64,000 bases of DNA from Nanobdellota archaeon. Lineage in GTDB: Archaea; Nanobdellota; Nanobdellia; Woesearchaeales; SKGA01. Below are positions 22,087 to 53,555 of the stretch, piece after piece. The stretch's first letter is position 1; each line of letters opens with the position of its first letter. Both the position numbers and the translations under genes were made by a program. The notes under the pieces were generated by a model. It ran no database searches, was not told where the DNA came from, and saw only the letters and a list, made by a program, of their open reading frames with translations. Location of the stretch: the NCBI GenBank assembly GCA_051819805.1, contig JBNJHD010000002.1, forward strand, positions 63,754 through 127,753. Direction: 5' to 3'.

Positions 22087-22148
22087 TCACTGTACTGTTT
22101 CATTCTTCGAAACTTTTATTAACAACATAAGAGGTAGTTATTAGTATC

Positions 22149-23030: not shown

Positions 23031-23100
23031 ACTAGCGGTTAGTTTTTTTTCTCAAGACAAAACTTTAAAAAGATAGTTCGCTCCAAACTATCTCAGGGCA

Positions 23101-26631: not shown

Positions 26632-26723
26632 AAGGTCAAAACATTTATAAAGAGGTTGTGGTTAAATTACCATAATCGAGGCATCTATGAGGGTAAGTTG
26701 CCTCCACTGTACAGTTAATAAAG

Positions 26724-30896: not shown

Positions 30897-30927
30897 AGTT
30901 CAATAAAAAGAGGTTGGGGATTGATTT

Positions 30928-35683: not shown

Positions 35684-36205
35684 ATGAAATCACGGTCTGG
35701 ACAAATACAACAAGTATTCATCTACCTCGTAGCGATATTCATCATAGGAGCAATAGCTCTGATAGGAGCAAAATCGCTTTTCGGTATCATGGACCAGAAA
35801 GAACAAGTCGATTATCTCACATTCAAAGAGAATATCAAGAATGAAGTCGAAGATAATAATATTTATGGCACTATCAACGAACGCCGTTTCTCGGTTCCAG
35901 GATCGATGAAAAAGATCTGCTTTGTCGATACCGAAACTTTTTTTGAAGGTCTGGGCGCTGAACTTAAAAGAAACAGCTTTAATGCAGATACAGGTAATGA
36001 TGAGATTGACTTCATCATCCAGGATAGTGTTAGAGATGGTGTTAAAGCGAATATATTTCTTTCTGACGGTCAGACGGTTGTTCCTATCGGCTACTCAAAT
36101 AAAGTTCAAACTGATAAAGACATAACATGCATCAATAATACGAACGGATATTTCAACATAGTATTCAAAGGTCAAGGTCGTAAAACACTCATCCTTCCAA
36201 AATGA
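35684..36205 (+). CDS. class III signal peptide (archaeal pilin-like) protein
   Basis: MKSRSG|QIQQVFIYLVAIFIIGAIALIGA: a basic N-region, G/Q junction, then a hydrophobic helix. Confidence 0.55.
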   Translation: MKSRSGQIQQVFIYLVAIFIIGAIALIGAKSLFGIMDQKEQVDYLTFKENIKNEVEDNNIYGTINERRFSVPGSMKKICFVDTETFFEGLGAELKRNSFNADTGNDEIDFIIQDSVRDGVKANIFLSDGQTVVPIGYSNKVQTDKDITCINNTNGYFNIVFKGQGRKTLILPK

Positions 36206-36215
36206 ATACACTAAG

Positions 36216-37328: not shown

Positions 37329-37347
37329 TTGTTCATAAAACACGAAA

Positions 37348-37851
37348 ATGGTCCGTTTCACAAAAGCGCAAATTCAAGTCAGCGAGTCGATTTTCATAGT
37401 CATATTCATCCTTATCATCATCATTTTCGGAATTGTCTTTTACTCAGGAGCGCAAGAGGAAGAGACAAGAGAGAAACGAGCACGATTCGCTGAACTCGAG
37501 TCAATACAAGTGGCTCAGATAGCTTCATCAATTCCAGAGATTCAATGCTCGCTGACTAATGTCCAGAAACCATCTTGTTTTGAAATAGAGAAGATGGATT
37601 CTTTTATCAACATCACCGAAAACAAACGATCACTGACAAGAGAGTATTTTTTCTCGAAGTTAGGGAATACAAGACTTGTAGTGCGAGAAGTATATCCTGA
37701 AGAGAATGAATGGGTGCTCTATAATAACACGCTAGCAGACGATGTTACGCAATCAGGATTACCTGTATTGATTCCAGTCTCACTATATAAGGCAACCTCA
37801 GGAGAATACCATTATGGGGTCCTTTATATCACTAACTTCCAGAAGAAATAA
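37348..37851 (+). CDS. class III signal peptide (pilin-like) protein
   Basis: MVRFTKA|QIQVSESIFIVIFILIIIIFGIVFY. Confidence 0.5.
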   Translation: MVRFTKAQIQVSESIFIVIFILIIIIFGIVFYSGAQEEETREKRARFAELESIQVAQIASSIPEIQCSLTNVQKPSCFEIEKMDSFINITENKRSLTREYFFSKLGNTRLVVREVYPEENEWVLYNNTLADDVTQSGLPVLIPVSLYKATSGEYHYGVLYITNFQKK

Positions 37852-37866
37852 CGATGGAGTAATCAT

Positions 37867-38373
37867 ATGATACCAAGAAAAGCACAGCAAGAGATCATAG
37901 GACTTGTCATTATTGTTCTTATAGTTTCCATGGCAATGCTCATCTACCTTTCAAGCAAAGCTGAAGAAGCTGAAGAGAACCAAGGAGTAAATATCCACAA
38001 GGAATACGCGTATAACGAGCTTGCCATGAGCTTTCTTGATACTATTGTCGATACATCAGTGTGTAATGTGGATATAGATAAACTTGTCAGAGATTGCGGG
38101 TCAAGACAAGAGATTGTCTGTAGTGATGGCAAAACATCTTGTGAGAAGCTCAACGAGACAATAATAGATATAAAAAATAACACGTTGGACGTGTGGGGGA
38201 TGGCATATGGTCTTATCATCAATTATCCTGACACTAGTCCTGCGCCTGATTTTGAATATATACGTGATGATTGCACGAATGAAACAACTGGTCGAAGCGC
38301 TCCTGGTTGGATTCCAGTATCTCTTCACCCACAAGGAACAGCAATGATCGAACTTGGCATCTGTGAATCATAA
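37867..38373 (+). CDS. class III signal peptide (pilin-like) protein
   Basis: MIPRKA|QQEIIGLVIIVLIVSMAMLIYL. Confidence 0.5.
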   Translation: MIPRKAQQEIIGLVIIVLIVSMAMLIYLSSKAEEAEENQGVNIHKEYAYNELAMSFLDTIVDTSVCNVDIDKLVRDCGSRQEIVCSDGKTSCEKLNETIIDIKNNTLDVWGMAYGLIINYPDTSPAPDFEYIRDDCTNETTGRSAPGWIPVSLHPQGTAMIELGICES

Positions 38374-38483
38374 GCATTTATTTATAAATGAATGAAAAGT
38401 TTTAAATACTATTGTTGTGGAAATTTATATACTGTTATTGTAATATAGTCAACTTCGTGTTGATTGTGTGAGGTGTTTTTTAG

Positions 38484-38768
38484 ATGATACGAATGAACAG
38501 GAAAGGTTCCGAACTTTCTATGAATGTGATAATTATAGCAGCAATAGCTCTGCTTGTCCTTGTTATCCTAGCGGTCATGCTACTCCAGAAAGGAGGAGAT
38601 ATACAGGAAGGAACGAGTTGTACAGGTCTAGGTGGAGAATGCTGCTCTAGCTGCGGAAACGCATGTGTAGTTGGTGGACAGAAATATTCCGTGCCACATC
38701 CTACTGGCGAATGTCCTTCTGGTCAGCAATGCTGCTTGAAATTAGGTGATGGAGACACAAACCGATAA
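38484..38768 (+). CDS. small (94 aa) Cys-rich pilin-like protein; candidate major pilin
   Basis: Canonical archaeal prepilin N-terminus MIRMNRKG|SELSMNVIIIAAIALLVLVILAVMLL. A short C-terminal domain with 8 Cys. It has its own TATA-like elements (TTTATTTATAAAT at 38377, AAATTTATATAC at 38422) in the only sizeable intergenic gap of the operon. Confidence 0.55.
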   Translation: MIRMNRKGSELSMNVIIIAAIALLVLVILAVMLLQKGGDIQEGTSCTGLGGECCSSCGNACVVGGQKYSVPHPTGECPSGQQCCLKLGDGDTNR

Positions 38769-41340
38769 GGTTCTCCACTTTTTTTCTTTCTTTCGAGGTG
38801 TGAAATTGGCAGGGCGATTACCAGATTCGAAACGAGCACTCAGCTCAATGGGAACAATAGGGAGTATAGTGATAGTACTCATCATCATCGCGCTTCTGCT
38901 ATTCACGCTTTCAGATGTTTTTGATAAGGCAGAGAAAGGAACGGACTGCGAAGCTATTGGTGGTGTATGGTCTGAAGATTGCAATAAAGATTTTCTTATG
39001 CAAGCAGTAGCTTTCGGCGAGAAAGACGATAAGATATGCTGCTTGAAAAACATAGGGCTTTCTGAGAGTGAAGAAGAGCAGTTCGAGAAATGGTATGAAC
39101 AACAAGCTCAAAGTAGCGGATCAGCACAGTCCGGAAGCCAGCAAGCACGACCTCTCACGTCAGACCAATTCAGTGAGACTCAAGAAGACATCTATATGAT
39201 GTTCAATAATGAGGGCTGGCAAGGGAGTATGACTCTTTCAGAAGCTTCAAACCCTGATAATCACATAACGATAGATCCGGATGACAAGAATACTTTTGCA
39301 GCAGTCAATAACGACCAAGATATCGAACGATGCACTATGGGAATATACCCTGCAGAACCATTTATCGGAGAAGAATTCCGGCGAGATGGTAATACTCCAG
39401 TCTCAGGATTCCAAGTCCAACACCAACCATGCAATATACGAACAGGCATGCAATTCATCGGTATTCTCACAAAAGAAGGTTATTACAAGTGGGATGTGGA
39501 GTTATTCGATGAGAAAGGAGAACGGACAGGTTCCGCTACACGGATCATCCATGTCAAGGAAGGGATATCCTCTCCTTCAGGAGAAGGTATCAAGCAAAAG
39601 ATACTACCTGAGATACGGATCGTTGCCGAAAACAATTTTCGTAAATGCTTCGTTTCAGCACGCGTCATGAACCAAAGCCTTGAAACAGGAAAATATTTCG
39701 GAACAACAACTCCTTCAATCATAAAAGGATATTTCCTAACTGATAAAGAGATAAAGCAAGCAGCAGAGGAAGGGAAAAATATCTGTCCACGCGATCGATC
39801 AACATACAATGAGCCTGTTGACTTCGCAAACGGATGGGATGATATTATTGTCGATTTCAACGAACGCTCTGATTTACACACTGCTTGTTTCTACTTCAAA
39901 GAGTCGGAAACCAGAACCACAACAGGTGCTGATGAACTAGTAACGCTCAATCAAGATAGTTGCGATACGATTGAAGTGATTGATTACAAGCTATTTGAAG
40001 AGATATTCTATGAATGCTCCTACGATTGCGAGATGTATAAGAATCAACAAGTTTCTTGTAATGATAGGGAGTCACGAAACGACAGATGCAGACTATCTCT
40101 AGACTGCGAATGGGAGCAAGGTTTGTTCAAGAAAAACACATGCACGAACTGTCATGAGGATTTCAGTTTTTGCAAGGATTATGATAATGAGGAAGCGTGC
40201 ACATCAAACCAATGTATCATAGATCACAGCTGCTATTGGGAATCAGGTTTTCCGAAAGGAGAATGTAAGGACTGTGATGAGACTCCATCATGTAACGATT
40301 ATAACAGCAGTAAAGCTTGCGAGTCAAACCCTTGTGGTGTTGCAGGTGGAGAGGAAGGAATCTGTTCATGGGAAGATGGTGAATGTAAACTGGACTTGTC
40401 AGCTAGTGGTGGAGACAGCATGAAAACCTGCGATGAGATGAATCGGGGAGAATGTGAAGGAGCACAAGGCTGTCTCTGGGATGCAGCGTTTTTTGGCGGA
40501 GAATGCCAAGATTGTGCCGAGAGAGGAATTGATGATTGTGATTCCTACCCTGACAAAAATGCTTGTAAGCAAGATTATTGCAACATCGAATGCCAATGGG
40601 AAGGAAATGGGTTGTTCAGCTCTGGAGAATGTAATCCTGATGGTTTTTGCGAATCGGATGATGATTGCAACGAAGGCGAAATTTGTCATCAAGGAAAAAA
40701 CCGATGCAAGAAACCTAATGAAGAGATTGATACTGATCAGTTCAATGATCAAGATCCTGATGAAGATGTAGCTACAGAGAATTGTGTTGAGCACGGATGT
40801 GATTTTTCAACTGAACGAAAATGTCTTAGTGAAGGAGGAAAAGACTGTAAGGGTGTTCTAGGCTGTTACTGGATTGCAAATGTAGGTGGTCTTAGTGGAA
40901 GCGAATATTGTCAATCCTGTTCTTCGATCACTTCATGCAGTGATTACAAATACATGTATCCGTGTGACACTAACGAATGCTCTAATGTCAATGATAATTG
41001 TTTCTGGAATCCAGATGAGAATACTGCCTCGGGCAATTATTGTCAATCATGTAATGATATTATGATGTGTAATGATTATATTTCCGAATCAGCCTGTAAC
41101 AGGGATGCTTGTTCAATAGAATATGATTGCATGTGGAATCCTGACTCTCCAGAAAACATTTACGGTGATGGTTGTGTCAATTGCGCTAGGATGACTTGTC
41201 ACGACTATACTACTCAATCACTATGTGAGGAGAATTCATGCGGACTGAATGGCGACCTTGGTTGTGGATGGTCTCAGGATGGTTGTGAACAAGTAATCAG
41301 TGATAGTATTCCTCCCGACTCCGATAGTGCGAATGTCTGA
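38746..41340 (+). CDS. 864-aa pilin-like/surface protein with a C-terminal array of Cys-rich modules
   Basis: N-terminal KRALSSMGTIGSIVIVLIIIALLLF (the start could instead be ATG 38848). The N-terminal module GTDCEAIGG...KICCLK is paralogous to the preceding 94-aa protein. Residues about 450-860 hold more than 8 tandem C-x2-C...C-x-DY...AC-x-N-C...W-x...C modules. Confidence 0.5.
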   Translation: MMETQTDKVLHFFSFFRGVKLAGRLPDSKRALSSMGTIGSIVIVLIIIALLLFTLSDVFDKAEKGTDCEAIGGVWSEDCNKDFLMQAVAFGEKDDKICCLKNIGLSESEEEQFEKWYEQQAQSSGSAQSGSQQARPLTSDQFSETQEDIYMMFNNEGWQGSMTLSEASNPDNHITIDPDDKNTFAAVNNDQDIERCTMGIYPAEPFIGEEFRRDGNTPVSGFQVQHQPCNIRTGMQFIGILTKEGYYKWDVELFDEKGERTGSATRIIHVKEGISSPSGEGIKQKILPEIRIVAENNFRKCFVSARVMNQSLETGKYFGTTTPSIIKGYFLTDKEIKQAAEEGKNICPRDRSTYNEPVDFANGWDDIIVDFNERSDLHTACFYFKESETRTTTGADELVTLNQDSCDTIEVIDYKLFEEIFYECSYDCEMYKNQQVSCNDRESRNDRCRLSLDCEWEQGLFKKNTCTNCHEDFSFCKDYDNEEACTSNQCIIDHSCYWESGFPKGECKDCDETPSCNDYNSSKACESNPCGVAGGEEGICSWEDGECKLDLSASGGDSMKTCDEMNRGECEGAQGCLWDAAFFGGECQDCAERGIDDCDSYPDKNACKQDYCNIECQWEGNGLFSSGECNPDGFCESDDDCNEGEICHQGKNRCKKPNEEIDTDQFNDQDPDEDVATENCVEHGCDFSTERKCLSEGGKDCKGVLGCYWIANVGGLSGSEYCQSCSSITSCSDYKYMYPCDTNECSNVNDNCFWNPDENTASGNYCQSCNDIMMCNDYISESACNRDACSIEYDCMWNPDSPENIYGDGCVNCARMTCHDYTTQSLCEENSCGLNGDLGCGWSQDGCEQVISDSIPPDSDSANV

Positions 41341-41490
41341 AACCAAACCAGTCTTATCGAAACTAGTGATGTATAATGAAATGTATTCGAGAACTATACA
41401 AAAAAGCAATTATGAACGAGACTGTTATTATCATATTCTCAATACTATTATTCATAGCAGTAGCTGCAGCAATCATGAAGGTGAGATCGA

Positions 41491-42174
41491 ATGTTTTCGG
41501 GTAATAAGAAAGGATTCGATACTTGGCAAATCATTACTATAACTGTAGCAATCATCACCTTGATAGCTATTTCAAGTATATGGAATCAAGCTCATGGTTC
41601 AGTCAAAGAATCCTTTGATGGAGTCGCATGCAGAGCCACAATCCACGCTCACGATATCACAGACACAGTATTCACTCCAGGTATTGAAAAAAGCTGCGCG
41701 ACAAGAGAACGACGAATATCACTCAAGGATAAGACGAAAGACGACTTGATCAAAGAACTGGAGAAACTCATGGCAAACTCTTGGTTGATGGTCAATGAAG
41801 GTCGATCAGATGACCTTTGGGAAGAGGATGCTCCTTTGAAAAAAGCAGGCTACTCATGCATGGCAACAGATCACATCTTTTTCGAGGATGTCGATAAGAG
41901 AGATTTCGAAGAAGAAATGATCACCCCTGAAGAGATAAGAGCACATATGAAAGAATCATATAAGAATGACGATTACACGTATCACATGTATATACAAGGG
42001 CATGGTGGTGTAGGAACGTACAAGATAACAGACAATGTGACTTTCAATAATGAATATATAATTTCAATAGCAAGTCCTCACTTCAATATATTCACACGAG
42101 AAGACGAGTTTGCAACAGGACTCATCTTGAGCTCGCTTGAAACAGGAAAACAGATAGGGTGTAAGCTAGTATGA
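41491..42174 (+). CDS. class III signal peptide (pilin-like) protein
   Basis: MFSGNKKG|FDTWQIITITVAIITLIAISSIW. Confidence 0.5.
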   Translation: MFSGNKKGFDTWQIITITVAIITLIAISSIWNQAHGSVKESFDGVACRATIHAHDITDTVFTPGIEKSCATRERRISLKDKTKDDLIKELEKLMANSWLMVNEGRSDDLWEEDAPLKKAGYSCMATDHIFFEDVDKRDFEEEMITPEEIRAHMKESYKNDDYTYHMYIQGHGGVGTYKITDNVTFNNEYIISIASPHFNIFTREDEFATGLILSSLETGKQIGCKLV

Positions 42175-42377
42175 TAGACATACTCATTCAACAGATTATC
42201 GACACTGTCCGTCTCGGAAAGAAAGGGATGGAATTTCAAATGATACTGTATCTCATATTAGCTCTCGTAGGTTTTGTCGTCCTGCTTTCAATAATCCTGC
42301 ACGTCACTCAGGATAAAGGAGGAGAAGCACTGAGTGCTACTGATTCACTCTTGAAATCAATCACTGGAAAAGACTAG
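42171..42377 (+). CDS. small (68 aa) pilin-like protein
   Basis: ATGA start/stop overlap with the upstream gene; LGKKG|MEFQMILYLILALVGFVVLLSII. Confidence 0.45.
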   Translation: MIDILIQQIIDTVRLGKKGMEFQMILYLILALVGFVVLLSIILHVTQDKGGEALSATDSLLKSITGKD

Positions 42378-42401
42378 ATGACATAAAGGTGCCAATACAA
42401 T

Positions 42402-44144
42402 ATGGATACGAGAATTATGGTAGGGGCGATGATTTTTATCATAGTTGCACTACTCAGTATTTCATTCATGACCTCAACAGGAGAGGATTCAAAAGGTTTG
42501 ATAGATAAATCGCTCAACACATCAAAATTATTCCCTGAAGATCTGAGAAGTGATGATTATTACCGTGATGATATTTCAGTACCTGTCTCTGTTGTCGAAT
42601 ATACATATGCCTTTGCAAAAGCAGCTTTTGATGACGAGTTCTATTATCAGAAAGGAGTTGCTGAAGGAGATGGAAAAATACTATTACTCCCTAATCCTCC
42701 AGACCTCTCGAAAAACCGTTATGATAAACGATACGTCCTGCGTATAATCCAGGATAATGATGATATAGAGATAGAATTATACGATACGGAAACAACACAA
42801 GAGCACCGATTACAAGACTTGTACCCTGACAGCGATTTCCGATTTCTCAAAGATAAGAAATTAGCTATCGTGTCGGAATTCTGTGGTTATGAAAGCACTA
42901 CATTCAAGGATATGATGGAAGCAGATATTACTTCTCAACCTCTTTCTCTTGATTCGACCAATTATATTGACAATAATGATGAGGATATGATTGAATTCTT
43001 CATTTCAGATGATAATACGTTAGTTCAAGATTATAGTGAAATTAATTTAGAATCAAAACATGAAGATTTCTCTAGAGTTGTTGACTCTGAAGAAATTTTT
43101 TACGGTGGTGATGAACACGGTCTGTTAACCTATATTAAAAAGACTGATGATGGTGAAGGAACTGTCGTGCTAACGCCAACTGCACACAGGAGTACTAGTT
43201 TGTCTTTTTATTCAGAAATTGATGATTTTAAATCTACCATTGATAAGAGGTTGTTTGGAAATTGTATGGATCAATCGTTCGTTTCTAATGCAATTTCTGA
43301 AGGATATTTTAAAACAGAAGCTATAGAAAAAATAGAAGATGTCGCAGAACAACATTTTGAAGAATATTTTTCAAACATCCTCACTAAAAACTATGGTAAT
43401 AACAATCTCTATCCGAACGGAACGCTCGTATATCAACAGGAATCATTTCCAAATCGTTACAAATCATTATTATTATCGCAAACTGATTCTGAAATGGAAT
43501 ATACAAAACAAATTTTATTCACTTTTGATAGCAGGCTAAAGAATAATGATTATGTTTTCAATGTTTATATGGTCTCCCCTTACAAGAAAGTACGTGAGGG
43601 TACTGCCAAATCATTGATTAAAATAGCTAGCTTTAAAATGAGTGAACCAGTTCAACCTATTTTATTACCTCCGGGCTATTCATCATCACCCTATAAAACA
43701 GTCAATCTTCTTTCTTTCATTTCTTCTCCTGATTTTATGGTATACGATGATTCGAATGATGATCTTTCTTCTCTAGTAACACCTGGTGAAGTTTATTCAT
43801 CCAATGAGGAGAAGATGTCTGCTTTTTTTGATAGTGTTTCAGAATCATATGTTATTGATAAGGAAATTGTAGTTTTACCTATTACTTATTCGAAACCCTT
43901 ATACTTGTATAACACTAATATCATATTCTTTGACGATTTTGATTATGATGATAATTTCATATGCTATAAGAATATGCAAACACCATCTCTTTATATCGGT
44001 GATAGGGACAAATTGAAAAGAAAAGACTACTGTGACTTATCAGGTTCCGAAGAAGAATCATTCCACTCAACAATTTATTATTCTGCATTCGATCAAATCA
44101 AAAAAAATCCTGATCTGGTCAGATGCGAGGTGATACAAACATGA
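42402..44144 (+). CDS. 580-aa secreted protein with an N-terminal signal anchor
   Basis: MDTRIMVGAMIFIIVALLSISFMTS, then an acidic, D/E/Y-rich ectodomain. Confidence 0.45.
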   Translation: MDTRIMVGAMIFIIVALLSISFMTSTGEDSKGLIDKSLNTSKLFPEDLRSDDYYRDDISVPVSVVEYTYAFAKAAFDDEFYYQKGVAEGDGKILLLPNPPDLSKNRYDKRYVLRIIQDNDDIEIELYDTETTQEHRLQDLYPDSDFRFLKDKKLAIVSEFCGYESTTFKDMMEADITSQPLSLDSTNYIDNNDEDMIEFFISDDNTLVQDYSEINLESKHEDFSRVVDSEEIFYGGDEHGLLTYIKKTDDGEGTVVLTPTAHRSTSLSFYSEIDDFKSTIDKRLFGNCMDQSFVSNAISEGYFKTEAIEKIEDVAEQHFEEYFSNILTKNYGNNNLYPNGTLVYQQESFPNRYKSLLLSQTDSEMEYTKQILFTFDSRLKNNDYVFNVYMVSPYKKVREGTAKSLIKIASFKMSEPVQPILLPPGYSSSPYKTVNLLSFISSPDFMVYDDSNDDLSSLVTPGEVYSSNEEKMSAFFDSVSESYVIDKEIVVLPITYSKPLYLYNTNIIFFDDFDYDDNFICYKNMQTPSLYIGDRDKLKRKDYCDLSGSEEESFHSTIYYSAFDQIKKNPDLVRCEVIQT

Positions 44145-44638
44145 TATTCAATAAAAAGAAAGCATCAAGCTCAACATATATCATACTAGGGGTTGTTATG
44201 ATGATTATACTAATCCTGCTGTCTTTGGCTTTAACTACAGATGTTTTCGGAAAAACTTCTGATTCAACAGATTCAATTTTCAAAAAGACCAATGAAGCTA
44301 TCGATGAAGGGAATCTGGACTCGTTCACAAATAATAACAAGTGCTCTGATGAAGACAAGAACTATTATTCTCTTGACAATAAACTCACAGGAGTCTTTGG
44401 TAATCAGGCAGGCAAGGTAGAAAAAATACATCGGGAAGACCTCGAAGCAATAAAAAAGTATCTCGATCAAGAAATTGGTGATAGTGCTCCACTAGAATTC
44501 ACTGATAGGGATAATCTTAATGACCTGCTGGTTGATGATGTCTCAAAAGAAGCTTTTTGCCCGACAGTAGATGAGGATAGCGAGTGTGATTTCAAACAGT
44601 TCGAAGAAACATTCCAACCTGAAGAGATATGTGGCTGA
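44141..44638 (+). CDS. class III signal peptide (pilin-like) protein
   Basis: The ORF-track frame starts at 44123. ATG 44141 gives an ATGA overlap with the upstream stop: MIFNKKKA|SSSTYIILGVVMMIILILLSLAL. Confidence 0.45.
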   Translation: MIFNKKKASSSTYIILGVVMMIILILLSLALTTDVFGKTSDSTDSIFKKTNEAIDEGNLDSFTNNNKCSDEDKNYYSLDNKLTGVFGNQAGKVEKIHREDLEAIKKYLDQEIGDSAPLEFTDRDNLNDLLVDDVSKEAFCPTVDEDSECDFKQFEETFQPEEICG

Positions 44639-44658
44639 AATAAGTATTTATACTGTGA

Positions 44659-46296
44659 TTGATGATGGATAAAGAGGTGACAAAGAAAGGGGCAACACTA
44701 TCACTAGTTGCTATCATGAGCATTATCATGTCGGTAATCATAGGCTATGCTGTCTTTTCAGGAATAAGCAATTATTACGGTGATCAGAAAACAGATCATA
44801 GTAACCGTCTTGACACGTTCAACGAAATCATTTCTGAAGTACATTACAACAACAATCTCCAGAAAGATAAATATACCATTTATGTCGAACCTTACGAGAT
44901 GTACATGTTCTTTTCAACAGGGAATGAACCAATACGATTATCAGCGACCTTTGACGGAAAAACAAAGAACATACTTCTAGAACGACCCAGCTACGCAGAT
45001 GAGTGCAATTCCAGCGCTTGCATCTGCTATTGCAAGCAAGGACCATACTGGGATCAAACTACTGATGAAGATGAGAATATCATAAGAAGGCCTCTTTCTG
45101 GCTTGACATTCACACAATCATCGATGAGTAGAGGATATCTTTGTCATAGCATGACTTGCCAATCAGTAAATCCTGAAGATACTGTGTTTTTCAATTCCAG
45201 AGGGTATGATAAAGAATATGCAGATGCTCTTACAACGTCTTATTTACGACTACACGATCCTGACCTCTCAGAAGAAGAACAAAGCTGGGATACGCTAGGA
45301 GAGAAGATGAAAACATCAACAGGGATGCCCTTTGACGTCATTATACTCAGCTCACGTTTTGGAAAAAAAGTCATTTCTTCTGCTTTCAACACTGGTGTTC
45401 TTGAATCCTTAGGAAACGAGCTGGAAGGTTTCTGGTATGCGATGGTCTTGTTGTTTTCAAGTGGGGATGTGAAGGAAGAGGCAGCAAATAAGGTATATCT
45501 CAATGAATTGGAAAAAAACATCGGCCCTGATGATATTATTGAAGTGCTTGCTACTAATTTCAACTGGGATGGCGGTATAGCTATCGGCGGAACTGGAATG
45601 CCAAAGACAAAAAAAGATCTGAAAGAAGGAAATCTTCGTGGAGTGGTCATCCCGCTTACGTTCCAGAAATCTAATGAGATTGAAAATGGGATAGCGATAT
45701 GTCCGGCTGACAATTGCCTATTTGAGAAGGCACAGCAACATTTCGCTGAGAAGGCAAAACAATACAAGGCTTCAGAAACTATCGATCGTAGAATACATGA
45801 TTATAATCAATTCATTGACCGGTCTTTTCTGAATTGTATGAAAGACTATCCTTCTGAAAAATGCATCTCCGAGTTCCAGATAGAAACTATTGACTTTATT
45901 CAAGATCTCCATGAACACTCCATTCTCTATGACAGTGACAAGTTCGCTATCGAAATATATTTCACGAAGATAGAAGAACCAGATAGTGAACAATTGACGA
46001 ATATGACTGTGAAACGAACCATCGGTTCTCAAACAGAACCACTTATAGAAAAAATCCTTCCAATACCATTTCCGTATATACATCCAATTTCAGACTCTCC
46101 TGGAGGTGTTTCTACAATCGCAAACTCTCCACTTATCATTACTGATGTAAACGAGGAAACTCTCTATTTCACACTTGAAGGTCATGCTGATAATGCTTTT
46201 GATATGGAACTCAAGGAATTGGAAGATAGTGAATATACGATTACGTTCACTGAAATTCCCAACAAACATAGTATTGCTATACAGACCATGCCCTGA
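44659..46296 (+). CDS. 545-aa class III signal peptide (pilin-like) protein
   Basis: MMMDKEVTKKG|ATLSLVAIMSIIMSVIIGYAVF, a canonical KG|A prepilin junction. Confidence 0.5.
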   Translation: MMMDKEVTKKGATLSLVAIMSIIMSVIIGYAVFSGISNYYGDQKTDHSNRLDTFNEIISEVHYNNNLQKDKYTIYVEPYEMYMFFSTGNEPIRLSATFDGKTKNILLERPSYADECNSSACICYCKQGPYWDQTTDEDENIIRRPLSGLTFTQSSMSRGYLCHSMTCQSVNPEDTVFFNSRGYDKEYADALTTSYLRLHDPDLSEEEQSWDTLGEKMKTSTGMPFDVIILSSRFGKKVISSAFNTGVLESLGNELEGFWYAMVLLFSSGDVKEEAANKVYLNELEKNIGPDDIIEVLATNFNWDGGIAIGGTGMPKTKKDLKEGNLRGVVIPLTFQKSNEIENGIAICPADNCLFEKAQQHFAEKAKQYKASETIDRRIHDYNQFIDRSFLNCMKDYPSEKCISEFQIETIDFIQDLHEHSILYDSDKFAIEIYFTKIEEPDSEQLTNMTVKRTIGSQTEPLIEKILPIPFPYIHPISDSPGGVSTIANSPLIITDVNEETLYFTLEGHADNAFDMELKELEDSEYTITFTEIPNKHSIAIQTMP

Positions 46297-46329
46297 ATGC
46301 TCATGCGATAAAAATGACGGTAGTTCAAG

Positions 46330-47232
46330 ATGAGAAAAAAACTTTCGAAGAACAAGAAAGCTTCCTGGCCAGTTCTCATAATTATGGATCTCATCGTAGC
46401 AGTCATGATCATACTTATCCTCGTTGGAATCTATGAGATATTCACTGATGAATCTCAAGTTGATAACATCGCAATGGCAAGGGATGTAGCAACACTTGTT
46501 GATGCTGTTCATGCAACAGAACGGGACTTGATATATAGTTATCCTGAAAGTTTCTATGAAAAAGACTTATTCTTCAACCGGACGAAGATACTCGTTACAA
46601 AAGATGTCTCTGGAATGTCAGGAAAACTTGCTTCACTACGATTTCTCTCATCCTATCCTGTTCACTTGAGTGATTTCATAACGATCAATGCTGTACGTAC
46701 AATAGACGGTGCAAAAATAATTCTTGAAAAAAAAGATCGAGAACTATCGATAATATCAGAACGATCATTTCACCGTGATGAAGAGACCATACCAACTTCA
46801 TCGCTAACACGAGAACAAATCACTCTTGACATTCTCACTGAAAAAAACACGCACTCAGTACAACAAGATTTGGCCAATGCCATTGACGCACAACTAGAAA
46901 TTGAACAGTTCAACGTATCATCAAATAGACCTACTGCAAGTATCATCATGGCTTCAAAGAGTGAAGGACGAATAACGATATATTATGAAGAAACACATAA
47001 GAAATCGATGGAACCGATAGCAGAGATACTCATATCATATCTTGAAAAATCAGATGATCTTGCAGTGACAAGCCAACCACTCCAATATACTCACGATACT
47101 CATTTGGCATCTATCAAGATAGCGATACCTGAAACAGTAGATTATCAAGATTATTTCATGAATCAAAACAACAAAGATGCATTTGTAGAACGAATTATCT
47201 ATTCACTCAAACAATATTATCCGACACAATGA
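46330..47232 (+). CDS. class III signal peptide (pilin-like) protein
   Basis: MRKKLSKNKKA|SWPVLIIMDLIVAVMIILILVGIY. Confidence 0.45.
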   Translation: MRKKLSKNKKASWPVLIIMDLIVAVMIILILVGIYEIFTDESQVDNIAMARDVATLVDAVHATERDLIYSYPESFYEKDLFFNRTKILVTKDVSGMSGKLASLRFLSSYPVHLSDFITINAVRTIDGAKIILEKKDRELSIISERSFHRDEETIPTSSLTREQITLDILTEKNTHSVQQDLANAIDAQLEIEQFNVSSNRPTASIIMASKSEGRITIYYEETHKKSMEPIAEILISYLEKSDDLAVTSQPLQYTHDTHLASIKIAIPETVDYQDYFMNQNNKDAFVERIIYSLKQYYPTQ

Positions 47233-47717
47233 AACAACTATTCCAAAGCAGGAAAGGGTCTGATGGCGATGCGTATGTCTCACAAGAGAAACCATTCAAA
47301 TTCATCGCATTCATCGTTATCATAACAGGAGTGCTTATCGTATTTCTTGCTTACGGGAGCAACTTCATGGATGCAGTAGCACATGTGGATGAAAATCTCG
47401 AAGCGGAAATAATGATAGAGAGAATGCAAAACGTCTGCTTTGCTGCAAGAGATCCATACACACTCCAACCCCAAGAGAATATTCTGGAGTATAGGAAGAT
47501 AAACCGCAAAACTCTTCAACGATGTTTTTCAAGTGATAATATTCCAACAATGATCATATCAATAGATCTGCTTGATGAACATACGAAACAAGAAATCAAC
47601 TTCAACCCAAGCTATATGAAAATAGGATCAGGATCGACAGAACGAGATTATGTCAGATACACCGTAATCAAGATTGATGGGGAATCATATCCTGGAGAAC
47701 TGCGAGTGAAAATATGA
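47229..47717 (+). CDS. pilin-like/signal-anchored protein
   Basis: ATGA overlap with the upstream gene; SRKG|SDGDAYVSQEKPFKFIAFIVIITGVLIVFLAY. Confidence 0.4.
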   Translation: MKQLFQSRKGSDGDAYVSQEKPFKFIAFIVIITGVLIVFLAYGSNFMDAVAHVDENLEAEIMIERMQNVCFAARDPYTLQPQENILEYRKINRKTLQRCFSSDNIPTMIISIDLLDEHTKQEINFNPSYMKIGSGSTERDYVRYTVIKIDGESYPGELRVKI

Positions 47718-48352
47718 GAGGAAAAAAGGCTCAACACGAGATGGATCTCACTTCCCTAGCTGCAGGTCTTGTCTTCATTATAATAGCATTCATCATATTT
47801 TCGCAAGTTGCTGATAATATCAGAATGAGTAGTGAAGAAAGAACTCTCCAAGAGGAAATGGAGCTAGGAGTTTCCAGGCACTTAAGAACGTTGCTTGAAT
47901 CCCCTGCAGATTATCAGGGATCGAAAGTGAAAGTTTCAGAACTCATACAGGATTATTACTATTATTATCTTCAGCAAGAAGAAGATGTTTGCGAGATACA
48001 TAGTTGTAGTGATCACATGATTCTCATAAAAAAATCAATACAAGAAAGTGTTGATCATTCATCAAGACTACTTGAAGGAAACAAGGATATCAATACATAT
48101 CTGATGAAAGCAGACGATCCTGAGATAACGCTAGGGGAAGTCACGTATGATGTAGATCCCCACTCTCGAAGTTGCAGCAGAAATGACGATGAGTCTTATT
48201 ATTGTGTTGGAGGAACTGTCTTCTCCTCTGACGCAGTGTTTTTACCATTACGAACTCACGAGTCACTTTCAGGATATGATGAGTATGTTATTGTGTTCGT
48301 CTTCGGACTTTATGACGTTGAAGCACAAGCCAGTTACTCGAAAATCGTTTGA
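47714..48352 (+). CDS. class III signal peptide (pilin-like) protein
   Basis: ATGA overlap; MRGKKA|QHEMDLTSLAAGLVFIIIAFIIF shares the K-A-Q motif. Confidence 0.45.
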   Translation: MRGKKAQHEMDLTSLAAGLVFIIIAFIIFSQVADNIRMSSEERTLQEEMELGVSRHLRTLLESPADYQGSKVKVSELIQDYYYYYLQQEEDVCEIHSCSDHMILIKKSIQESVDHSSRLLEGNKDINTYLMKADDPEITLGEVTYDVDPHSRSCSRNDDESYYCVGGTVFSSDAVFLPLRTHESLSGYDEYVIVFVFGLYDVEAQASYSKIV

Positions 48353-48363
48353 ACACTAAAAAA

Positions 48364-51300
48364 ATGAAATCGCACATGAAAAGCTCAAAAAAAGGAGTTT
48401 CACTCCTACTATCAAGTATATTCGTTTTACTGATGGTCATAGGAATCATATTAGCAGTCTATAATCCTGACGAGCAGATAGATATAGGGTCTAAACAATA
48501 TCAGGTACTGATTTCAAACGAGAAAGCCTCAGCGATTGATTTATTCATCAAGCAAGCTTTCAAGTTATCTTCTGACTATTCAGTCGATATATTTTTTCAC
48601 AACAATGGTGTATTCAACGAAGAGACTGAAGACGGAGAACACACTGAACACCAATGCGGAAAATACCTCGCACCTCTATTTTTCAAGTCCTCGGAGGATC
48701 CTGATGCATGTTTTCCTGATTTCAGAGATAATTTTAAAGCTTATCTCGGTACAGACTTCAATAAGAAACTTCTCACATATCCTGAAATAGATCTTTATTT
48801 CAATCCAGAAATATTCATCGGAGAACAAAATGACTTCATAACATGCGATGGTTCTTCATCACTAGCACAAACTTATATTGAGCGGTCAAACAAGGAAGCA
48901 TGGAATACAGGTGGAAAAACTTATCTCGAAACCGCTTTTGAGGTGGCAGCTGACACAGGTGCTGACCCTGCTTTACTTCTCGCCCATGCATCAATGGAAA
49001 GTGCTATGGGTGAAGATAATACGTGCACAAATCAAGGAAAGAGTTCTCTGACAGGCTGCGGTTGGCTTCCAACTTGTTCAAAAGACTGCGGTTGTGAAGA
49101 TACACGCGGTTATTTCGAATCAGACACTAGCCAATTCCAATGCACAGCTCGTGTCGATAAGGCTGCGTTCGCAGGGGAAGGATCGTATGAGAAATGCACA
49201 CCATATAGAGATAACCCTGAACTGCTTTTCAATTGTGTCATGTGTGTTTATCAAGGAAATTATGATACTGTCATTCCAGGAGGTGGAGAAAAATACTTTA
49301 CAAAAGATGATACATGCCGTTATGCAGAAATCGTTTCATCATTATATTGTGGTTGGAATAAGTATCTGTCTCAAGAATACGAGGAAGAAATTCTTAGCGA
49401 TGATAAAGTAAGCTCATTTGTCTCAATGGAAACAGAAGAAGCTATTGAGATACCTATACTGACTCAATCCGAGCTACGATCAGATATCAACCGAAAATCA
49501 TATCCTAACGGTCTGCTCGGAGGGTTCCAGAACGAACGAATAATACCTTGCGGTTCTTCAACGTGCTTAGCAGATATTGCCGAATACTATCATAGTCTTT
49601 ACAGGCAGTATCCGTATGTGTGGGGAGGAGAATCACCATACTCATATCAGGATACAAAACCATTAACTGAAGAACAAGATTCGGTATTCTACAAAGTTTC
49701 AGTGACAAGAAAGCAACCTGAAAAAGTCGCATTCACAGAACCAGGATTCGACTGTTCAGGATGGGTCTGGTGGGTCGCTTCACATTCAAGTGCACAACCA
49801 CTCAGCATACGAAATGATGCGGAAGGCTTTTACAGGATGTTACAGAAATCAACGGATGCACAACCTGTTTGTGATAAAGAAAACGAGAAATCCTGTTCAA
49901 AAGAGACTATTATCAATAACGCACAACCAGGAGATATCTTATTCTACAAAGGACTTCATGATCCTAAAGTAACTCATATCATGATCTATCTCGGTGAAGG
50001 AGTCATCAGTCACTCTCGAGGATCGAAAGGTCTTGTCAAAGAAGATATTCCACCATCATACACTAATAACATACAAGCAGTTTACCATCTCAAAGGATCG
50101 GCATTCAGTGGAACTCACGATTCACTTGACTCCTACTTCAAGAATAGCGATGAAGAGTTATCCGAGTCAAAAGGTTCTTGTGTCTTACCAATTGATTTCA
50201 CGCAAATCAATGAAGAAGCTATAGATTCGACAAGAGTATCTTTTGAAGAACTCCAGGAAACAATCATTAAGAACGATCTTGAACAGACCATTCAGGAAGC
50301 GTCCAAAAAATACCGTATTCCAACAGCATATATCAAGGCGATAATCACGACAGAAGTAGGTGGATCGAAATATCTCGATAAATACTTATCAGGAGAAACA
50401 ACAATAAGCGAGAGCAATATGAGAGGTCCGATGCAATTATCACGTGTGGCTTGCGATACTCTAAATGATGCAGAAGCTGATTCGTGCGACCTCAAAGTTA
50501 TAGAGAAAGGTGATGTGGAAAACGCGATCATGACTTCGACCAGATTCATAGCGCACCTCAGGGACACGACACAATATATTGACAAGAACAATCCGGATTA
50601 TTACATGTTATCGCTAGCTTACAATGCAGGTCCGGGAAGCCTGAAATATATTCTAGAAACTGCAAGCAAGAGAACAGGAATACATCCTGAACAACTACAA
50701 TGGAGAGATATCACTTATAATGACATACAAAACGGGCTCAAAGACACAGGTAAAGATTGGGCTGATGATGAAGACAAATGGAAAGAAGTCCGAGAATATC
50801 CTAATCTTGTCGCTCAATCACTCTCTGAGCAGTGTCTAGGTAATCCTTTGCTACCGAAGACAAGAAGCAGTATCCGATTAGAACCACAAGCTTATGCTAC
50901 TGTCAATATAGATTTCAATCTATTAGAAACGATTGAAGAATTCACAATTTCGCTACAATCATGCAATGATGATCTTGACGTTTGCGTTTCAGAAAAGACT
51001 GATGAGTTCAACCAAGAGTTCTATGATGTTGAAGTTATCGATACAGCTAACGAACTTGACAGGCATTCAACTCCTCAGGATTCAAAAATAATCCGTTCAG
51101 GAGTATATCTTACTGAACTCTCTTCTCAAGATACGAAATCAAGTAATGATGTGTTTGCAATGAATTTCCTTAAACAACTGATTGACTGCTCAACTAATTC
51201 CCAATCAGGATGTGTTTGCATGATAAATTCAAATACTTCAGAATTGCAAGCTGAACAAGTGACATTGAAACTTGCGTGGAACGAACGAAGCTACCAACCA

Positions 51301-52998
51301 GCATCCGAGGCAAACATTTATGTCAATGGAAAACCAAAAGGTTCAATTTCACTTCTCCCACTGAACTTGTTCAAGGAAGATGAACGCTCCGTTGCACCGA
51401 AAGACATAACATTCACCTTCACTAAGAAAAACATTATTATTGAAACATCATCTGGTTTTGAACAGACTATCTCACCGAATCAACAACTAGCAACACTCAA
51501 ACATTTCTCGCTTCAAGATTATACTACTAAGAGTCATCCTTATGATCGCTCACTTATCAACATCAACAAGTATGAACGTTCAACTTCGGCAATGGACTAT
51601 CAAAGCCAGTCACTTGATTTATCAGGTTTGTTTTTTGATAATTCCGATCAAAATCTGCCTTCAGGATCATTTGACCAGTTCTATAATGATGAATTGAAGA
51701 ATTTTATGAAGTTAACGAGAGATGATAAAGAAACATCTGATCGCTGCACGCAAGTCGTCTCCTATGCCCAGAGATATCTAGGTTCGGGATATGGCGGAAC
51801 GGGAGTGTGCACTGCAGAACAAGCTGAACGAGAAGAATGCACTACACAATGCGGATCGTATGTCACTAACGTATTCAGGGAGATTTTTGATGAGGTGCTT
51901 CTGGGTAATGGCAACCAAAAATGCGAATCTGCAGAGTCTGTCAGCGCCAACAGATTCACCAATCCTGAATTGCTTAGAGCAGGAGATATATTCTCTTCAG
52001 ACGGACGATCAGATGCTGCACAGAAATATGGTCACACAGGAATATATGTCGGTAAAGGTTTCGTTTCAGAACCAGCACGTGATTCATCATGGGGAACATA
52101 CTCGTACAAGAGATTCACTCCAGATCCGAACGGAGAGCATGTGTTTATCCATTCTATAGGACCAGTTTCATATAATACTTTATCACAACTCATTTCAGAG
52201 GATAAGCAGGCGAGAAACATCATCAGCTTCTGTAGATATGAACCATGTAAGGAACAAGATGATCCTATCAATGGTTTTGATGTCAAGAGTGGAATGACAC
52301 TATTCTCTTACGAAAAGGATGAGAATGAAAATCATGCTCCATTTATCTGCAGGGATAATTCAGATACTTATCTTTTCAGAACAGAATTTCCTCAGATGCC
52401 TGGAAAAACGATTGATTTCGCTGCAGAACTGAATGACACTGTCGCGCCTGAAACGATCATACAACAATCTGCAAATCAAGCTTCATGCGCATCCAGTCCT
52501 GCTATCATCTTCTCATGGAAAGATGATACGGAACATCTTTATGGGTATAATATCACTGTATGGGCAGAAAATGATAATGAAGATGAAGGAATATCATACA
52601 TCGTACCTCTCACTCATGCTGAATACGCTGATACGAAACCAGAAAACCCGAAGACACTCCACAAGCCTTTCATCACTCAAGATAGTAAGGTGAAAACGTA
52701 TCATTATATGATAGGAAACATCAACAATATACCTTTATTCAAGATCAACACCACTTACTCCTATAAGATAACTCCTTTGGACAATCATTTCAACAGTCCG
52801 CAATCAAGCGATATAGGCAGTATCACTCTCCGTGATTCTGATGAAGCGATAGGACAATTATCAACTATACTATTCCAAGATTCGACACTTTTTGATCTCT
52901 ATTCAACTACTAAAGATCTGTTCAAAGGAGAATGCTCCAATTATCTGGAAGAACTAGCGGAGCAACGAGAAGAAGTACTGGGTGAGATGAGCTCATGA
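48364..52998 (+). CDS. giant (about 1545 aa) multi-domain cell-wall hydrolase with a class III-type signal: N-terminal lysozyme-like region, NlpC/P60 peptidase, GH23/SLT lytic transglycosylase and a second NlpC/P60/CHAP-like domain
   Basis: The ORF-track start 48349 is a TTG overlapping the upstream stop; the first ATG is at 48364 (MKSHMKSSKKG|VSLLLSSIFVLLMVIGIILAV). NlpC/P60 #1: YPYVWGGESPY...GFDCSGWVWWV...GDILFYKG...HIMIYLGEGVISHS (about 49560-50040). SLT: IPTAYIKAIITTEVGG...GPMQLSRVA...LSLAYNAGPGSLKYIL (about 50290-50700). Second NlpC/P60-like: RYLGSGYGGTGVCT...GDIFSSDGR...GHTGIYVGKG...EHVFIHS (about 51740-52170). An additional ...LLLAHASMESAMGED E-S region sits at about 48850-49100. Confidence 0.7.
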   Translation: MKSHMKSSKKGVSLLLSSIFVLLMVIGIILAVYNPDEQIDIGSKQYQVLISNEKASAIDLFIKQAFKLSSDYSVDIFFHNNGVFNEETEDGEHTEHQCGKYLAPLFFKSSEDPDACFPDFRDNFKAYLGTDFNKKLLTYPEIDLYFNPEIFIGEQNDFITCDGSSSLAQTYIERSNKEAWNTGGKTYLETAFEVAADTGADPALLLAHASMESAMGEDNTCTNQGKSSLTGCGWLPTCSKDCGCEDTRGYFESDTSQFQCTARVDKAAFAGEGSYEKCTPYRDNPELLFNCVMCVYQGNYDTVIPGGGEKYFTKDDTCRYAEIVSSLYCGWNKYLSQEYEEEILSDDKVSSFVSMETEEAIEIPILTQSELRSDINRKSYPNGLLGGFQNERIIPCGSSTCLADIAEYYHSLYRQYPYVWGGESPYSYQDTKPLTEEQDSVFYKVSVTRKQPEKVAFTEPGFDCSGWVWWVASHSSAQPLSIRNDAEGFYRMLQKSTDAQPVCDKENEKSCSKETIINNAQPGDILFYKGLHDPKVTHIMIYLGEGVISHSRGSKGLVKEDIPPSYTNNIQAVYHLKGSAFSGTHDSLDSYFKNSDEELSESKGSCVLPIDFTQINEEAIDSTRVSFEELQETIIKNDLEQTIQEASKKYRIPTAYIKAIITTEVGGSKYLDKYLSGETTISESNMRGPMQLSRVACDTLNDAEADSCDLKVIEKGDVENAIMTSTRFIAHLRDTTQYIDKNNPDYYMLSLAYNAGPGSLKYILETASKRTGIHPEQLQWRDITYNDIQNGLKDTGKDWADDEDKWKEVREYPNLVAQSLSEQCLGNPLLPKTRSSIRLEPQAYATVNIDFNLLETIEEFTISLQSCNDDLDVCVSEKTDEFNQEFYDVEVIDTANELDRHSTPQDSKIIRSGVYLTELSSQDTKSSNDVFAMNFLKQLIDCSTNSQSGCVCMINSNTSELQAEQVTLKLAWNERSYQPASEANIYVNGKPKGSISLLPLNLFKEDERSVAPKDITFTFTKKNIIIETSSGFEQTISPNQQLATLKHFSLQDYTTKSHPYDRSLININKYERSTSAMDYQSQSLDLSGLFFDNSDQNLPSGSFDQFYNDELKNFMKLTRDDKETSDRCTQVVSYAQRYLGSGYGGTGVCTAEQAEREECTTQCGSYVTNVFREIFDEVLLGNGNQKCESAESVSANRFTNPELLRAGDIFSSDGRSDAAQKYGHTGIYVGKGFVSEPARDSSWGTYSYKRFTPDPNGEHVFIHSIGPVSYNTLSQLISEDKQARNIISFCRYEPCKEQDDPINGFDVKSGMTLFSYEKDENENHAPFICRDNSDTYLFRTEFPQMPGKTIDFAAELNDTVAPETIIQQSANQASCASSPAIIFSWKDDTEHLYGYNITVWAENDNEDEGISYIVPLTHAEYADTKPENPKTLHKPFITQDSKVKTYHYMIGNINNIPLFKINTTYSYKITPLDNHFNSPQSSDIGSITLRDSDEAIGQLSTILFQDSTLFDLYSTTKDLFKGECSNYLEELAEQREEVLGEMSS

Positions 52999-53555
52999 AA
53001 TCACAAGCAATGATTCTAGTAGCATTACTGCTTTCTATACTTCTCGTGTCCAGTCCTGTTCTTTCTCTCGATTGCGTGAAAGGTATAGATGGGTACTGTG
53101 ATGAAGCTTGCCGTGAAGTCGACTTCGATTGCGCTTCAAATCCTAATCTCGAAGCAAAAATCCAAACAGATCTTGAAAAAAATGATTCAACTCCCCGACA
53201 GGATCCTTATAGGGAAATTCATGCTTCAGACACACTTATTCTCATAGGAACAAAAACAATTCCTGAATACGAAGCAAGGAAACCAACAAACGATCATATC
53301 AACGAGAATATGGGTGTGTTGCTTTTAGCGATCGCAATATCTCTCATTTTTATCAGTATAACACTCCTTATCATTCACCGTATGGAACTCAAACAAGGAG
53401 ACGATACGAGGATTCTGGAGAATATGAAATTCCACATCAAACGGCTCAGGCGCCACGGTCATTCCGATGAGGATATCAAGAAGATGTTTCTCCATAAGAA
53501 CCACCATTCCAGAATGATCGATAAGGCGTTTAAAGCACTGGAAAAACAGGCATAA
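52995..53555 (+). CDS. bitopic membrane protein (Sec signal plus C-terminal TM); last gene of the operon
   Basis: ATGA overlap with the giant hydrolase gene. Signal MILVALLLSILLVSSPVLSLDC, a CxxxxxC motif, TM GVLLLAIAISLIFISITLLII and a basic tail. Confidence 0.45.
   Translation: MKSQAMILVALLLSILLVSSPVLSLDCVKGIDGYCDEACREVDFDCASNPNLEAKIQTDLEKNDSTPRQDPYREIHASDTLILIGTKTIPEYEARKPTNDHINENMGVLLLAIAISLIFISITLLIIHRMELKQGDDTRILENMKFHIKRLRRHGHSDEDIKKMFLHKNHHSRMIDKAFKALEKQA

Follow-up and report, generated by a model that had tools for sequence, protein, structure and literature searches.

The gene at positions 48364 to 52998 (+ strand) of the 64,000-nucleotide stretch of Nanobdellota DNA analysed here (the window) encodes a modular, multi-enzyme murein hydrolase. 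We consider it probable that its product is a cell-surface protein of a Woesearchaeales-type archaeon of the DPANN group (Diapherotrites, Parvarchaeota, Aenigmarchaeota, Nanoarchaeota and Nanohaloarchaeota), that it is exported along a type-IV-filament route and that it is used on the sacculi of bacteria. This reading draws on four wall-cutting domains, on a conserved N-terminal module that begins with a class-III-type signal and on the place of the gene within a conserved operon.

The open reading frame (ORF) runs from an ATG at 48364 to a stop codon at 52996-52998 and encodes 1544 residues. A first-pass annotation, made by a model from the letters of the DNA, had described a protein of 1545 residues at this place; the ORF is present at 48364-52998 and its product is one residue shorter. 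An alternative TTG start at 48349, overlapping the stop codon of the preceding gene, would give a product of 1549 residues (+5 residues). All motifs quoted in that annotation (DCSGW, THIMIY, ISHS, TTEVGG, GPMQLS, AYNAGPG, GHTGIYVGKG and SMESAMG) were located in the translation. Its assignment of the DNA to an archaeon was borne out by the marker genes of the window, namely MCM with an archaeal winged helix, Cdc6, TBP, the PolD small subunit, RPA and NurA.

Four wall-cutting domains on a shared scaffold

The protein contains four wall-cutting modules. Glycan strands are the predicted substrate of two of them, and peptide stems or amide bonds that of the other two. An NlpC/P60 cysteine peptidase domain is located at 49612..50049 (+; residues 417-562). 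It matched the Pfam profile NLPC_P60 (PF00877, MEROPS C40) with 51.6 bits, for a gathering threshold of 23, and NlpC/P60 chains of the PDB were matched at E values of 1e-3 to 2e-3. The Cys-His-His set read in the first-pass annotation is present as C464 in GFDCSGW, H538 in THIMIY and H550 in ISHS, and 17 of the 22 homologues retain the catalytic Cys and His. In P0014, P0017, P0018 and P0019, Ser stands in place of the Cys and one or more catalytic His are gone, the remainder of the domain being conserved. In these four proteins, the cutting domain may have been turned into a binding domain. P0022 carries an Amidase_2 domain in place of NlpC/P60.

An SLT (GH23) lytic transglycosylase domain follows at 50287..50664 (+; residues 642-767) and scored 26.0 bits with PF01464, for a gathering threshold of 21.3 (Pfam). 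The catalytic residue E664 lies in TTEVGG, and the motifs GPMQLS and AYNAGPG begin at residues 688 and 752. The Glu is kept in eight of the ten family members having the domain, and the GH23 assignment made earlier therefore stands.

The second glycan-cleaving module, at 48856..49413 (+; residues 165-350), is rich in Cys. It has a lysozyme/lytic-transglycosylase fold with a conserved Glu on its N-terminal helix, the putative catalytic residue being E212 in SMES (nucleotides 48997-48999). The lysozyme-like character proposed for the ASMESAMG region was thus upheld by a GH23-like fold and by an invariant E212, though sequence profiles placed the domain in no known family. Indeed, residues 165-350 gave no Pfam match at E≤1, and a 14-sequence family profile run against the PDB returned chance matches to enolase only. 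In the family alignment, E212 of the 'ES' motif is invariant and 11 Cys columns are invariant or nearly so. These eleven near-invariant columns suggest that the domain is extracellular and stabilised by disulfides. Of the two GH23-fold domains, one is therefore a canonical SLT domain and the other a Cys-rich variant outside Pfam.

The fourth module, at 51724..52233 (+; residues 1121-1290), is a CHAP-like amidase/peptidase domain of the papain fold. It had been annotated as a second NlpC/P60 peptidase. The superfamily and the His (H1224 in GHTGIY) were correct, but the domain is CHAP-like, it is marginal in Pfam (PF05257 at residues 1161-1228, 25.9 bits for a cut-off of 26, E 1.5e-5), and the nucleophile is likely to be C1163 of TTQCGSY rather than the Cys of GVCT, because TTQCGSY fits the 'QC' motif of CHAP domains. 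This Cys and His pair is kept in five of six members, P0014 having Asp in place of Cys. Using the family profile, weak matches to NlpC/P60 structures of the PDB were obtained (E 0.015-0.05); the single sequence gave no match in the PDB.

Conservation of the catalytic residues among homologues, named in the first-pass annotation as a point to check, holds for most of them. The four dead NlpC/P60 sites and the two SLT domains without their Glu show that not every domain is catalytic in every member.

Two further regions of the protein are conserved. The middle region (50764..51723, +; residues 801-1120) contains conserved Cys residues and is recovered by BLAST in most family members, with no Pfam match. 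The C-terminal region (52234..52995, +; residues 1291-1544) is conserved in 13 homologues and is possibly a beta-rich binding domain; its profile matched nothing significantly in the PDB, the lone match being to the FN3-like (fibronectin type III-like) part of NagJ at E 1.8.

The family consists of 22 homologues of 1063-1803 residues from metagenome-assembled genomes (MAGs) of Nanoarchaeota and Woesearchaeota. Segment-wise BLAST gave a usual layout consisting of the N-terminal module, NlpC/P60, the Cys-rich GH23-like or the SLT domain, the middle region, an optional CHAP-like domain and the C-terminal region. Domains are shuffled among members, and both glycan-cleaving domains occur together in the query and in P0003. 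The Pfam families found in 23 close members were NlpC/P60 (19), SLT (6), M15 (3), Amidase_2 (2), Muramidase (2) and Glucosaminidase (2), as well as VanY. In 41 more long members bearing the same N-terminal module, they were SLT (21), Amidase_2 (15), M23 (11), NlpC/P60 (8), 3D (5) and GDSL esterase (4), with YkuD (2), M15_4 (1), VanY (1) and Muramidase (1) as rarer families. The esterases of four remote members (GDSL/SGNH) and the YkuD domains of two (L,D-transpeptidase fold) could be peptidoglycan de-O-acetylases or lipases that widen the attack repertoire. Overall, up to ten hydrolase families are swapped on a single scaffold, which has the look of an arms-race repertoire.

This cargo bears on the nature of the wall that is cut. 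The first-pass annotation had also named the pseudomurein wall of a methanogen host as a possible target. The hosts known so far for cultivated DPANN archaea are all archaea, and peptidases of the NlpC/P60 type could in principle cleave other isopeptide stems. Yet the cargo of the 64 members is almost all murein-specific, with Amidase_2, M15/VanY (D-Ala-D-Ala), M23, Muramidase and GH73, and the Pfam families listed for these proteins include no pseudomurein-named family (PeiW/PeiP type, C71 or PMBR repeats). Several of the cargo families recognise D-Ala-D-Ala or the bond between N-acetylmuramic acid (MurNAc) and L-Ala, features that are missing from pseudomurein. In addition, GH23 enzymes cleave the beta-1,4 bond between MurNAc and N-acetylglucosamine (GlcNAc), which is missing from pseudomurein as well (PMC12352652). 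Judging from the domains carried (Amidase_2, M15/VanY, M23 and GH23/GH73/Muramidase, with no pseudomurein-named family), bacterial murein is a much more likely target, and we regard a pseudomurein target as very improbable. Strock et al. argue generally for murein over pseudomurein as the target of archaeal peptidoglycan hydrolases (PMC12352652).

The wall in question might also be the archaeon's own. The protein would then remodel a murein-like layer of the cell that makes it, or clear a path for the cell's own appendage, as VirB1, FlgJ, EtgA and PrgK do for appendages in bacteria. The window argues otherwise, since no mur genes and no genes of the penicillin-binding-protein type were found among its ORFs, and a cocktail of four enzymes, with up to ten families swapped, resembles diversification against foreign walls rather than housekeeping. 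Archaea, moreover, are not known to make murein (PMC12352652). Action on the archaeon's own wall is therefore improbable.

The N-terminal signal and the carrier module

The protein begins with a class-III (prepilin-type) signal-like sequence at 48364..48462 (+). It reads MKSHMKSSKKG followed by VSLLLSSIFVLLMVIGIILAVY, with cleavage predicted after G11 (nucleotides 48394-48396). Archaeal class III signals have a positive residue at position -2, Gly or Ala at -1 and then a hydrophobic helix (PMC3387779), and the giant protein conforms to this rule with Lys at -2, Gly at -1 and the helix next. [KR]-[GA] directly precedes the hydrophobic helix in every one of the 21 homologues whose N-terminus is complete (P0012, whose N-terminus is cut, was left out of the count), and the neighbouring residues vary. 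A class-III-type start pattern was also found in about 135 remote members.

This signal is lost from the database entry. The NCBI protein P0001, 'NlpC/P60 family protein [Nanobdellota archaeon]', has 1521 residues and is devoid of 23 N-terminal residues, its model beginning at a Met inside the hydrophobic helix, so that the signal peptide (window 48364-48432) is missing. Because of this start call, signal-peptide surveys of archaeal peptidoglycan hydrolases would miss the protein. In their survey, Strock et al. 2025 scored Sec and Tat signals only, and 68% of the archaeal peptidoglycan hydrolases had no recognised signal (PMC12352652).

The signal is part of an N-terminal 'carrier' module (48364..48879, +; residues 1-172) made of the signal helix, an amphipathic helix at residues 43-79 and a Cys98...Cys116 loop. 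About 140 residues after the signal are conserved, with the helix pattern IGxxQYxxL..NE.A....YI ahead of the loop. In an AlphaFold2 model of the module (mean predicted local distance difference test score 78.9), residues 9-32 are helical. A profile of residues 1-172, searched against 1.84 billion representatives, recovered 960 clusters at E≤1e-3, among which 281 at E≤1e-10. The match was at the extreme N-terminus of the protein in every case, the KK[GA]-hydrophobic start was present in all members listed, and those bearing a taxon name are archaeal. Since the Pfam families found downstream of it in the long members scanned are almost all murein hydrolases, the module seems to serve as a dedicated carrier of such cargo.

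The operon and the question of a filament

The hydrolase gene stands at the end of an operon of about 15 co-directional, closely packed genes (35684..48352, +, for those upstream of it), nearly all of which encode class-III-signal-like N-termini. To score these, we applied a rule that asks, in the first 45 residues, for [KR]x0-1[GA] and then, within 8 residues, for a hydrophobic 16-mer. The rule held for 13 of the 15 genes between 35684 and 48364 (the giant ORF counted), as compared to two of the 30 other genes of the window (Fisher p 1.3e-7). One of the two outside positives is a 1176-residue protein encoded at 23101, in the same supercluster, and gene 47229 would be a fourteenth in the operon, its motif having a longer spacer. 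The pilus-like operon described in the first-pass annotation is therefore real as a set of class-III-signal genes. All genes between 23101 and 53555 share the + strand; the gaps between them range from -23 to 150 nucleotides, and some start codons overlap stop codons.

The order of the operon and the N-termini of its products are conserved in five other DPANN genomes (loci L001, L002/3, L004, L005 and L006), which range from 43% identity across the whole hydrolase down to sharing of the N-terminal module alone. In these genomes, 11-17 class-III-signal genes are followed by the hydrolase, at times by a small Cys-rich gene with a Sec signal, and then by the gene of RPA. The hydrolase is thus the last enzyme gene of a conserved class-III-signal operon. 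One or more genes for giant surface proteins stand ahead of the class-III run where the flank extends far enough (the window and L005), and genes for YdjM and an ABC-2 transporter follow RPA in several genomes.

Given such synteny, there is little room for an origin in an integrated virus or another mobile element, such as that of a tail or tip lysin. In most of the diverged genomes that were inspected, the operon is flanked by RPA, YdjM, the ABC-2 transporter and a helix-turn-helix regulator, the GC content is uniform, and the ORFs scanned include no capsid, terminase or integrase. We find this origin hardly credible.

Within the operon, a 94-residue class-III-signal protein is encoded at 38484..38768 (+) and begins with MIRMNRKG followed by SELSMNVIIIAAIALLVLVILAV. 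This N-terminal hydrophobic helix is nearly invariant across the six loci, and homologues of the protein form at least 259 clusters. Most of the clusters listed are of 80-100 residues, with a few of up to 158. The named homologues are almost all from Woesearchaeota/Nanoarchaeota (DPANN) MAGs. The tiny size class, the near-invariant helix and the wide set of homologues match what would be expected of a core filament subunit, and these features make the protein a candidate for that role as major subunit. One homologue, P0174, is labelled Bacteroidota, probably as a result of mis-binning. The 94-residue gene is missing from ORF lists set at ≥100 residues, and its 3′ end overlaps by 23 nucleotides the GTG-called start of ORF 38746, the true start of which is probably further downstream. 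NCBI labels the protein 'DUF948 domain-containing protein', an apparent transmembrane-helix artefact; matches of small operon proteins to DUF948, FliL and similar families were likewise rejected as transmembrane-helix noise.

From these features, a mode of action can be proposed. The giant protein would be exported and processed through the type-IV-filament route by the class III signal peptidase. Its N-terminal helix would then fix it either to a pilus-like fibre of operon subunits, at the tip or base, or in the adjacent membrane; if it sits in the filament, a tip or base position is suggested by its large size. At the site of contact, the four enzymes would sever a bacterial sacculus in both its glycan strands and its peptide stems, and the opened wall of the bacterial host or prey would permit attachment, access to the cytoplasm or release of nutrients. 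Incorporation into a pilus and use as a weapon are what we infer. In a bolder form of this proposal, which we put forward tentatively and as less probable than the role on bacterial sacculi as such, the 35.7-53.6 kb operon would encode an undescribed type-IV-filament organelle of DPANN archaea, with a terminal four-enzyme murein 'drill head', borne on the pilin-signal module, by which Woesearchaeales-type archaea would breach the walls of living bacteria.

Several observations weigh against a filament-exported enzyme used on bacteria. Curated pilin and class III profiles of Pfam and NCBIfam matched neither the giant protein nor any operon protein, the best pilin-profile score being that of TIGR04205 with ORF 36216 (E 0.19). 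The model of the carrier module matched no pilin fold and has no pilin-type globular domain after its helix. The prepilin-type N-terminus of the first-pass annotation was therefore confirmed as regards the class III rule and its conservation (21/21), but not as regards a pilin fold or a pilin profile. An N-terminus with a basic residue, Gly/Ala and a hydrophobic stretch could also serve as an uncleaved signal anchor. Among the window ORFs of ≥400 residues, all of which were scanned, no type IV filament (TFF) ATPase, platform protein or prepilin peptidase (PF00437, PF00482 and PF01478-type) was found; for the five other loci, precomputed Pfam lists of the flanking 10 kb likewise showed no TFF ATPase, platform protein or class III peptidase. 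The dead NlpC/P60 site of four homologues and the SLT Glu lost in two have also to be counted here. Finally, no cultivated DPANN archaeon is known to have a bacterial host.

The main rival explanation is that of a scavenging enzyme. In this case, a membrane-anchored or shed protein would act outside any filament and digest free peptidoglycan or dead bacteria for amino sugars and amino acids, its N-terminus being an uncleaved anchor or a cleaved non-filament anchor and the neighbouring genes belonging to a separate surface structure. The hydrolase domains fit nutrition equally well, and the failure to find a pilin fold, pilin profile matches or an assembly ATPase nearby is consistent with it. 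Peptidoglycan of dead bacteria has been proposed as an amino-acid source for Pacearchaeota (PMC11537232). Three points speak for the filament route instead. Over hundreds of diverged members, an unvarying [KR]-[GA] pair sits precisely where the hydrophobic helix begins, which a plain anchor would not require. In six genomes, the gene keeps strictly to the last place of a class-III-signal operon, in which starts and stops overlap or nearly adjoin. The locus contains no genes for muropeptide uptake or catabolism. We therefore hold scavenging outside a filament to be rather unlikely, and the reading in which the protein is exported by the filament route and used on bacterial sacculi is retained.

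Several neighbouring genes deserve description. Three giant surface proteins of 1176, 1390 and 1574 residues are encoded directly upstream of the operon (23101..35652, +). The 1176-residue protein has a class-III-like signal (MRTKG followed by QATIF...), the other two have Sec-type signals, and L005 encodes a 2255-residue protein at the equivalent position. With one more, the stretch 17041-35652 (+) contains four giant ORFs of 1681, 1176, 1390 and 1574 residues, a Memo-like gene lying between the first two. They gave only weak matches to immunoglobulin-like (Ig-like), FN3 and CarboxypepD_reg domains, and are likely to serve the same supercluster as adhesins or surface-layer components. At its C-terminal end, ORF 30928 has a transmembrane helix and a long Gln/Glu/Lys-rich tail. 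Inside the operon, the 864-residue class-III-signal protein encoded at 38746-41340 (+) gave no Pfam match; its C-terminal half is an array of Cys-rich modules of the type C..C....C.DY....C.....C..W.

Downstream of the hydrolase, a 186-residue Cys-rich protein with a Sec signal is encoded at 52995..53555 (+), its start overlapping the hydrolase stop codon by 4 nucleotides. It matched no family. By BLAST, an orthologue was found in L002. L004 has a gene that is alike in size and place; L001, L005 and L006 have none. Next comes an RPA-type single-stranded-DNA-binding protein (oligonucleotide/oligosaccharide-binding fold and Rep_fac-A_C; 53637-54800, +), which is found downstream of the hydrolase in all six genomes, the most distant one included. 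This adjacency may be plain conserved synteny, or it could link the appendage to DNA handling or uptake.

Elsewhere in the window, a 1.1-kb AT-rich intergenic gap at 6703-7826 lies beside cdc6 (GC 0.27 in the 6-8 kb bin). Beyond cdc6 comes the gene of the PolD small subunit; mcm and tbp lie within a few kb. The gap is probably a replication origin; a search for origin repeats at 6.7-7.8 kb gave low-complexity AT repeats only and no clear origin-recognition boxes.

Significance and comparison with known systems

These findings bear on whether the abundant Woesearchaeota and Pacearchaeota live on bacteria, and how. Earlier work recorded merely 'large murein transglycosylase' proteins in their genomes. 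A system can now be defined, with a carrier module (about 960 clusters), a fixed place at the operon end, a 94-residue candidate subunit and a Cys-rich GH23-like domain. The class III signal also provides a likely way of export for the many archaeal peptidoglycan hydrolases in which Sec and Tat signals are missing. If the operon does encode an organelle with a drill head, it would be the first defined molecular apparatus of parasitism or predation of an archaeon on bacteria, and it would explain why most archaeal peptidoglycan hydrolases have no recognised Sec or Tat signal. The swapped hydrolase repertoire could yield new lytic enzymes, and the locus supplies concrete targets for antibodies, proteomics, electron cryo-tomography and enzyme assays.

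In the open-access literature and bioRxiv, we found no link of DPANN murein hydrolases to pilins or class III signals, and no description of the carrier module, of the operon-end position with the candidate subunit or of the Cys-rich GH23-like domain. A 2026 preprint on the diversity of archaeal TFFs makes no mention of peptidoglycan or hydrolases (bioRxiv 10.64898/2026.04.22.720090).

Among bacterial weapons, the type VI secretion effectors Tse1 (NlpC/P60-type) and Tse3 (a muramidase) are separate, small proteins that come with immunity proteins and are delivered by contractile injection. In the giant protein, by contrast, the enzymes are fused in one polypeptide and immunity is unneeded. The VirB1-like hydrolases of conjugation systems in Gram-positive bacteria (PrgK of pCF10, TraG of pIP501) combine an N-terminal membrane helix with several hydrolase domains (LytM, SLT or CHAP) in the operon of a surface machine, as the giant protein does. 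PrgK and TraG are, however, bacterial, act on the wall of their own cell, have no class III signal and are much smaller, and there is no detectable sequence relation beyond the catalytic folds.

As to the carrier, class III signals are used by functional non-pilin proteins in the Sulfolobus bindosome (PMC3387779), and a PilY-like adhesin occurs in archaeal subsystem 4A (bioRxiv 10.64898/2026.04.22.720090). The substrate-binding proteins of the bindosome, the large minor pilins found at filament tips (CofB/TcpB, GspK) and the tip adhesin PilY1 resemble the giant protein in that they are functional proteins that do not form the filament themselves and are either made with a prepilin-type signal or carried by a type IV filament. 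They carry no lytic enzymes, and the fold and sequence of the present carrier module match none of them. By analogy, CofB, TcpB, GspK and the bindosome may nevertheless serve as precedents for a large filament-associated protein.

Archaeal enzymes against bacterial murein have been described. Strock et al. 2025 showed experimentally that other archaeal peptidoglycan hydrolases kill bacteria, and found these enzymes to be prominent and most diverse in Nanoarchaeota (PMC12352652). Woldo and Danwoldo of Halogranum salarium, which kill bacteria and are aimed at their murein (PMC12352652), are small, soluble, Tat-secreted toxins with peptidoglycan-binding domains, whereas the giant protein has a class-III-type signal and no known peptidoglycan-binding domain.

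The nearest known counterparts are found in the same lineage. Castelle et al. 2021 described extracellular proteins of up to 3000 residues with a murein lytic transglycosylase domain, found specifically in the Woesearchaeota and the Pacearchaeota, and proposed a role in attachment to bacterial hosts (PMC8204110). On the same basis, Vigneron et al. 2022 proposed 'vampiristic' Woesearchaeota (PMC9723730). The fam00969 proteins of the first study and the AR20 and Lake A MAG proteins of the second likewise have 1000-3000 residues, a GH23 domain and an assumed role in binding or degrading the bacterial wall. The giant protein very probably belongs to this known group of large murein-lytic proteins. 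Neither study speaks of pili or pilins. For the published proteins, no class III signal, carrier module or terminal place in an operon of about 15 class-III-signal genes was described, nor were NlpC/P60 and CHAP partners or a Cys-rich GH23-like domain, all of which are features of the giant protein or its locus. Overall, the idea of murein-degrading DPANN archaea has already been published, and the link to a pilin-type signal and to an operon appears to be new.

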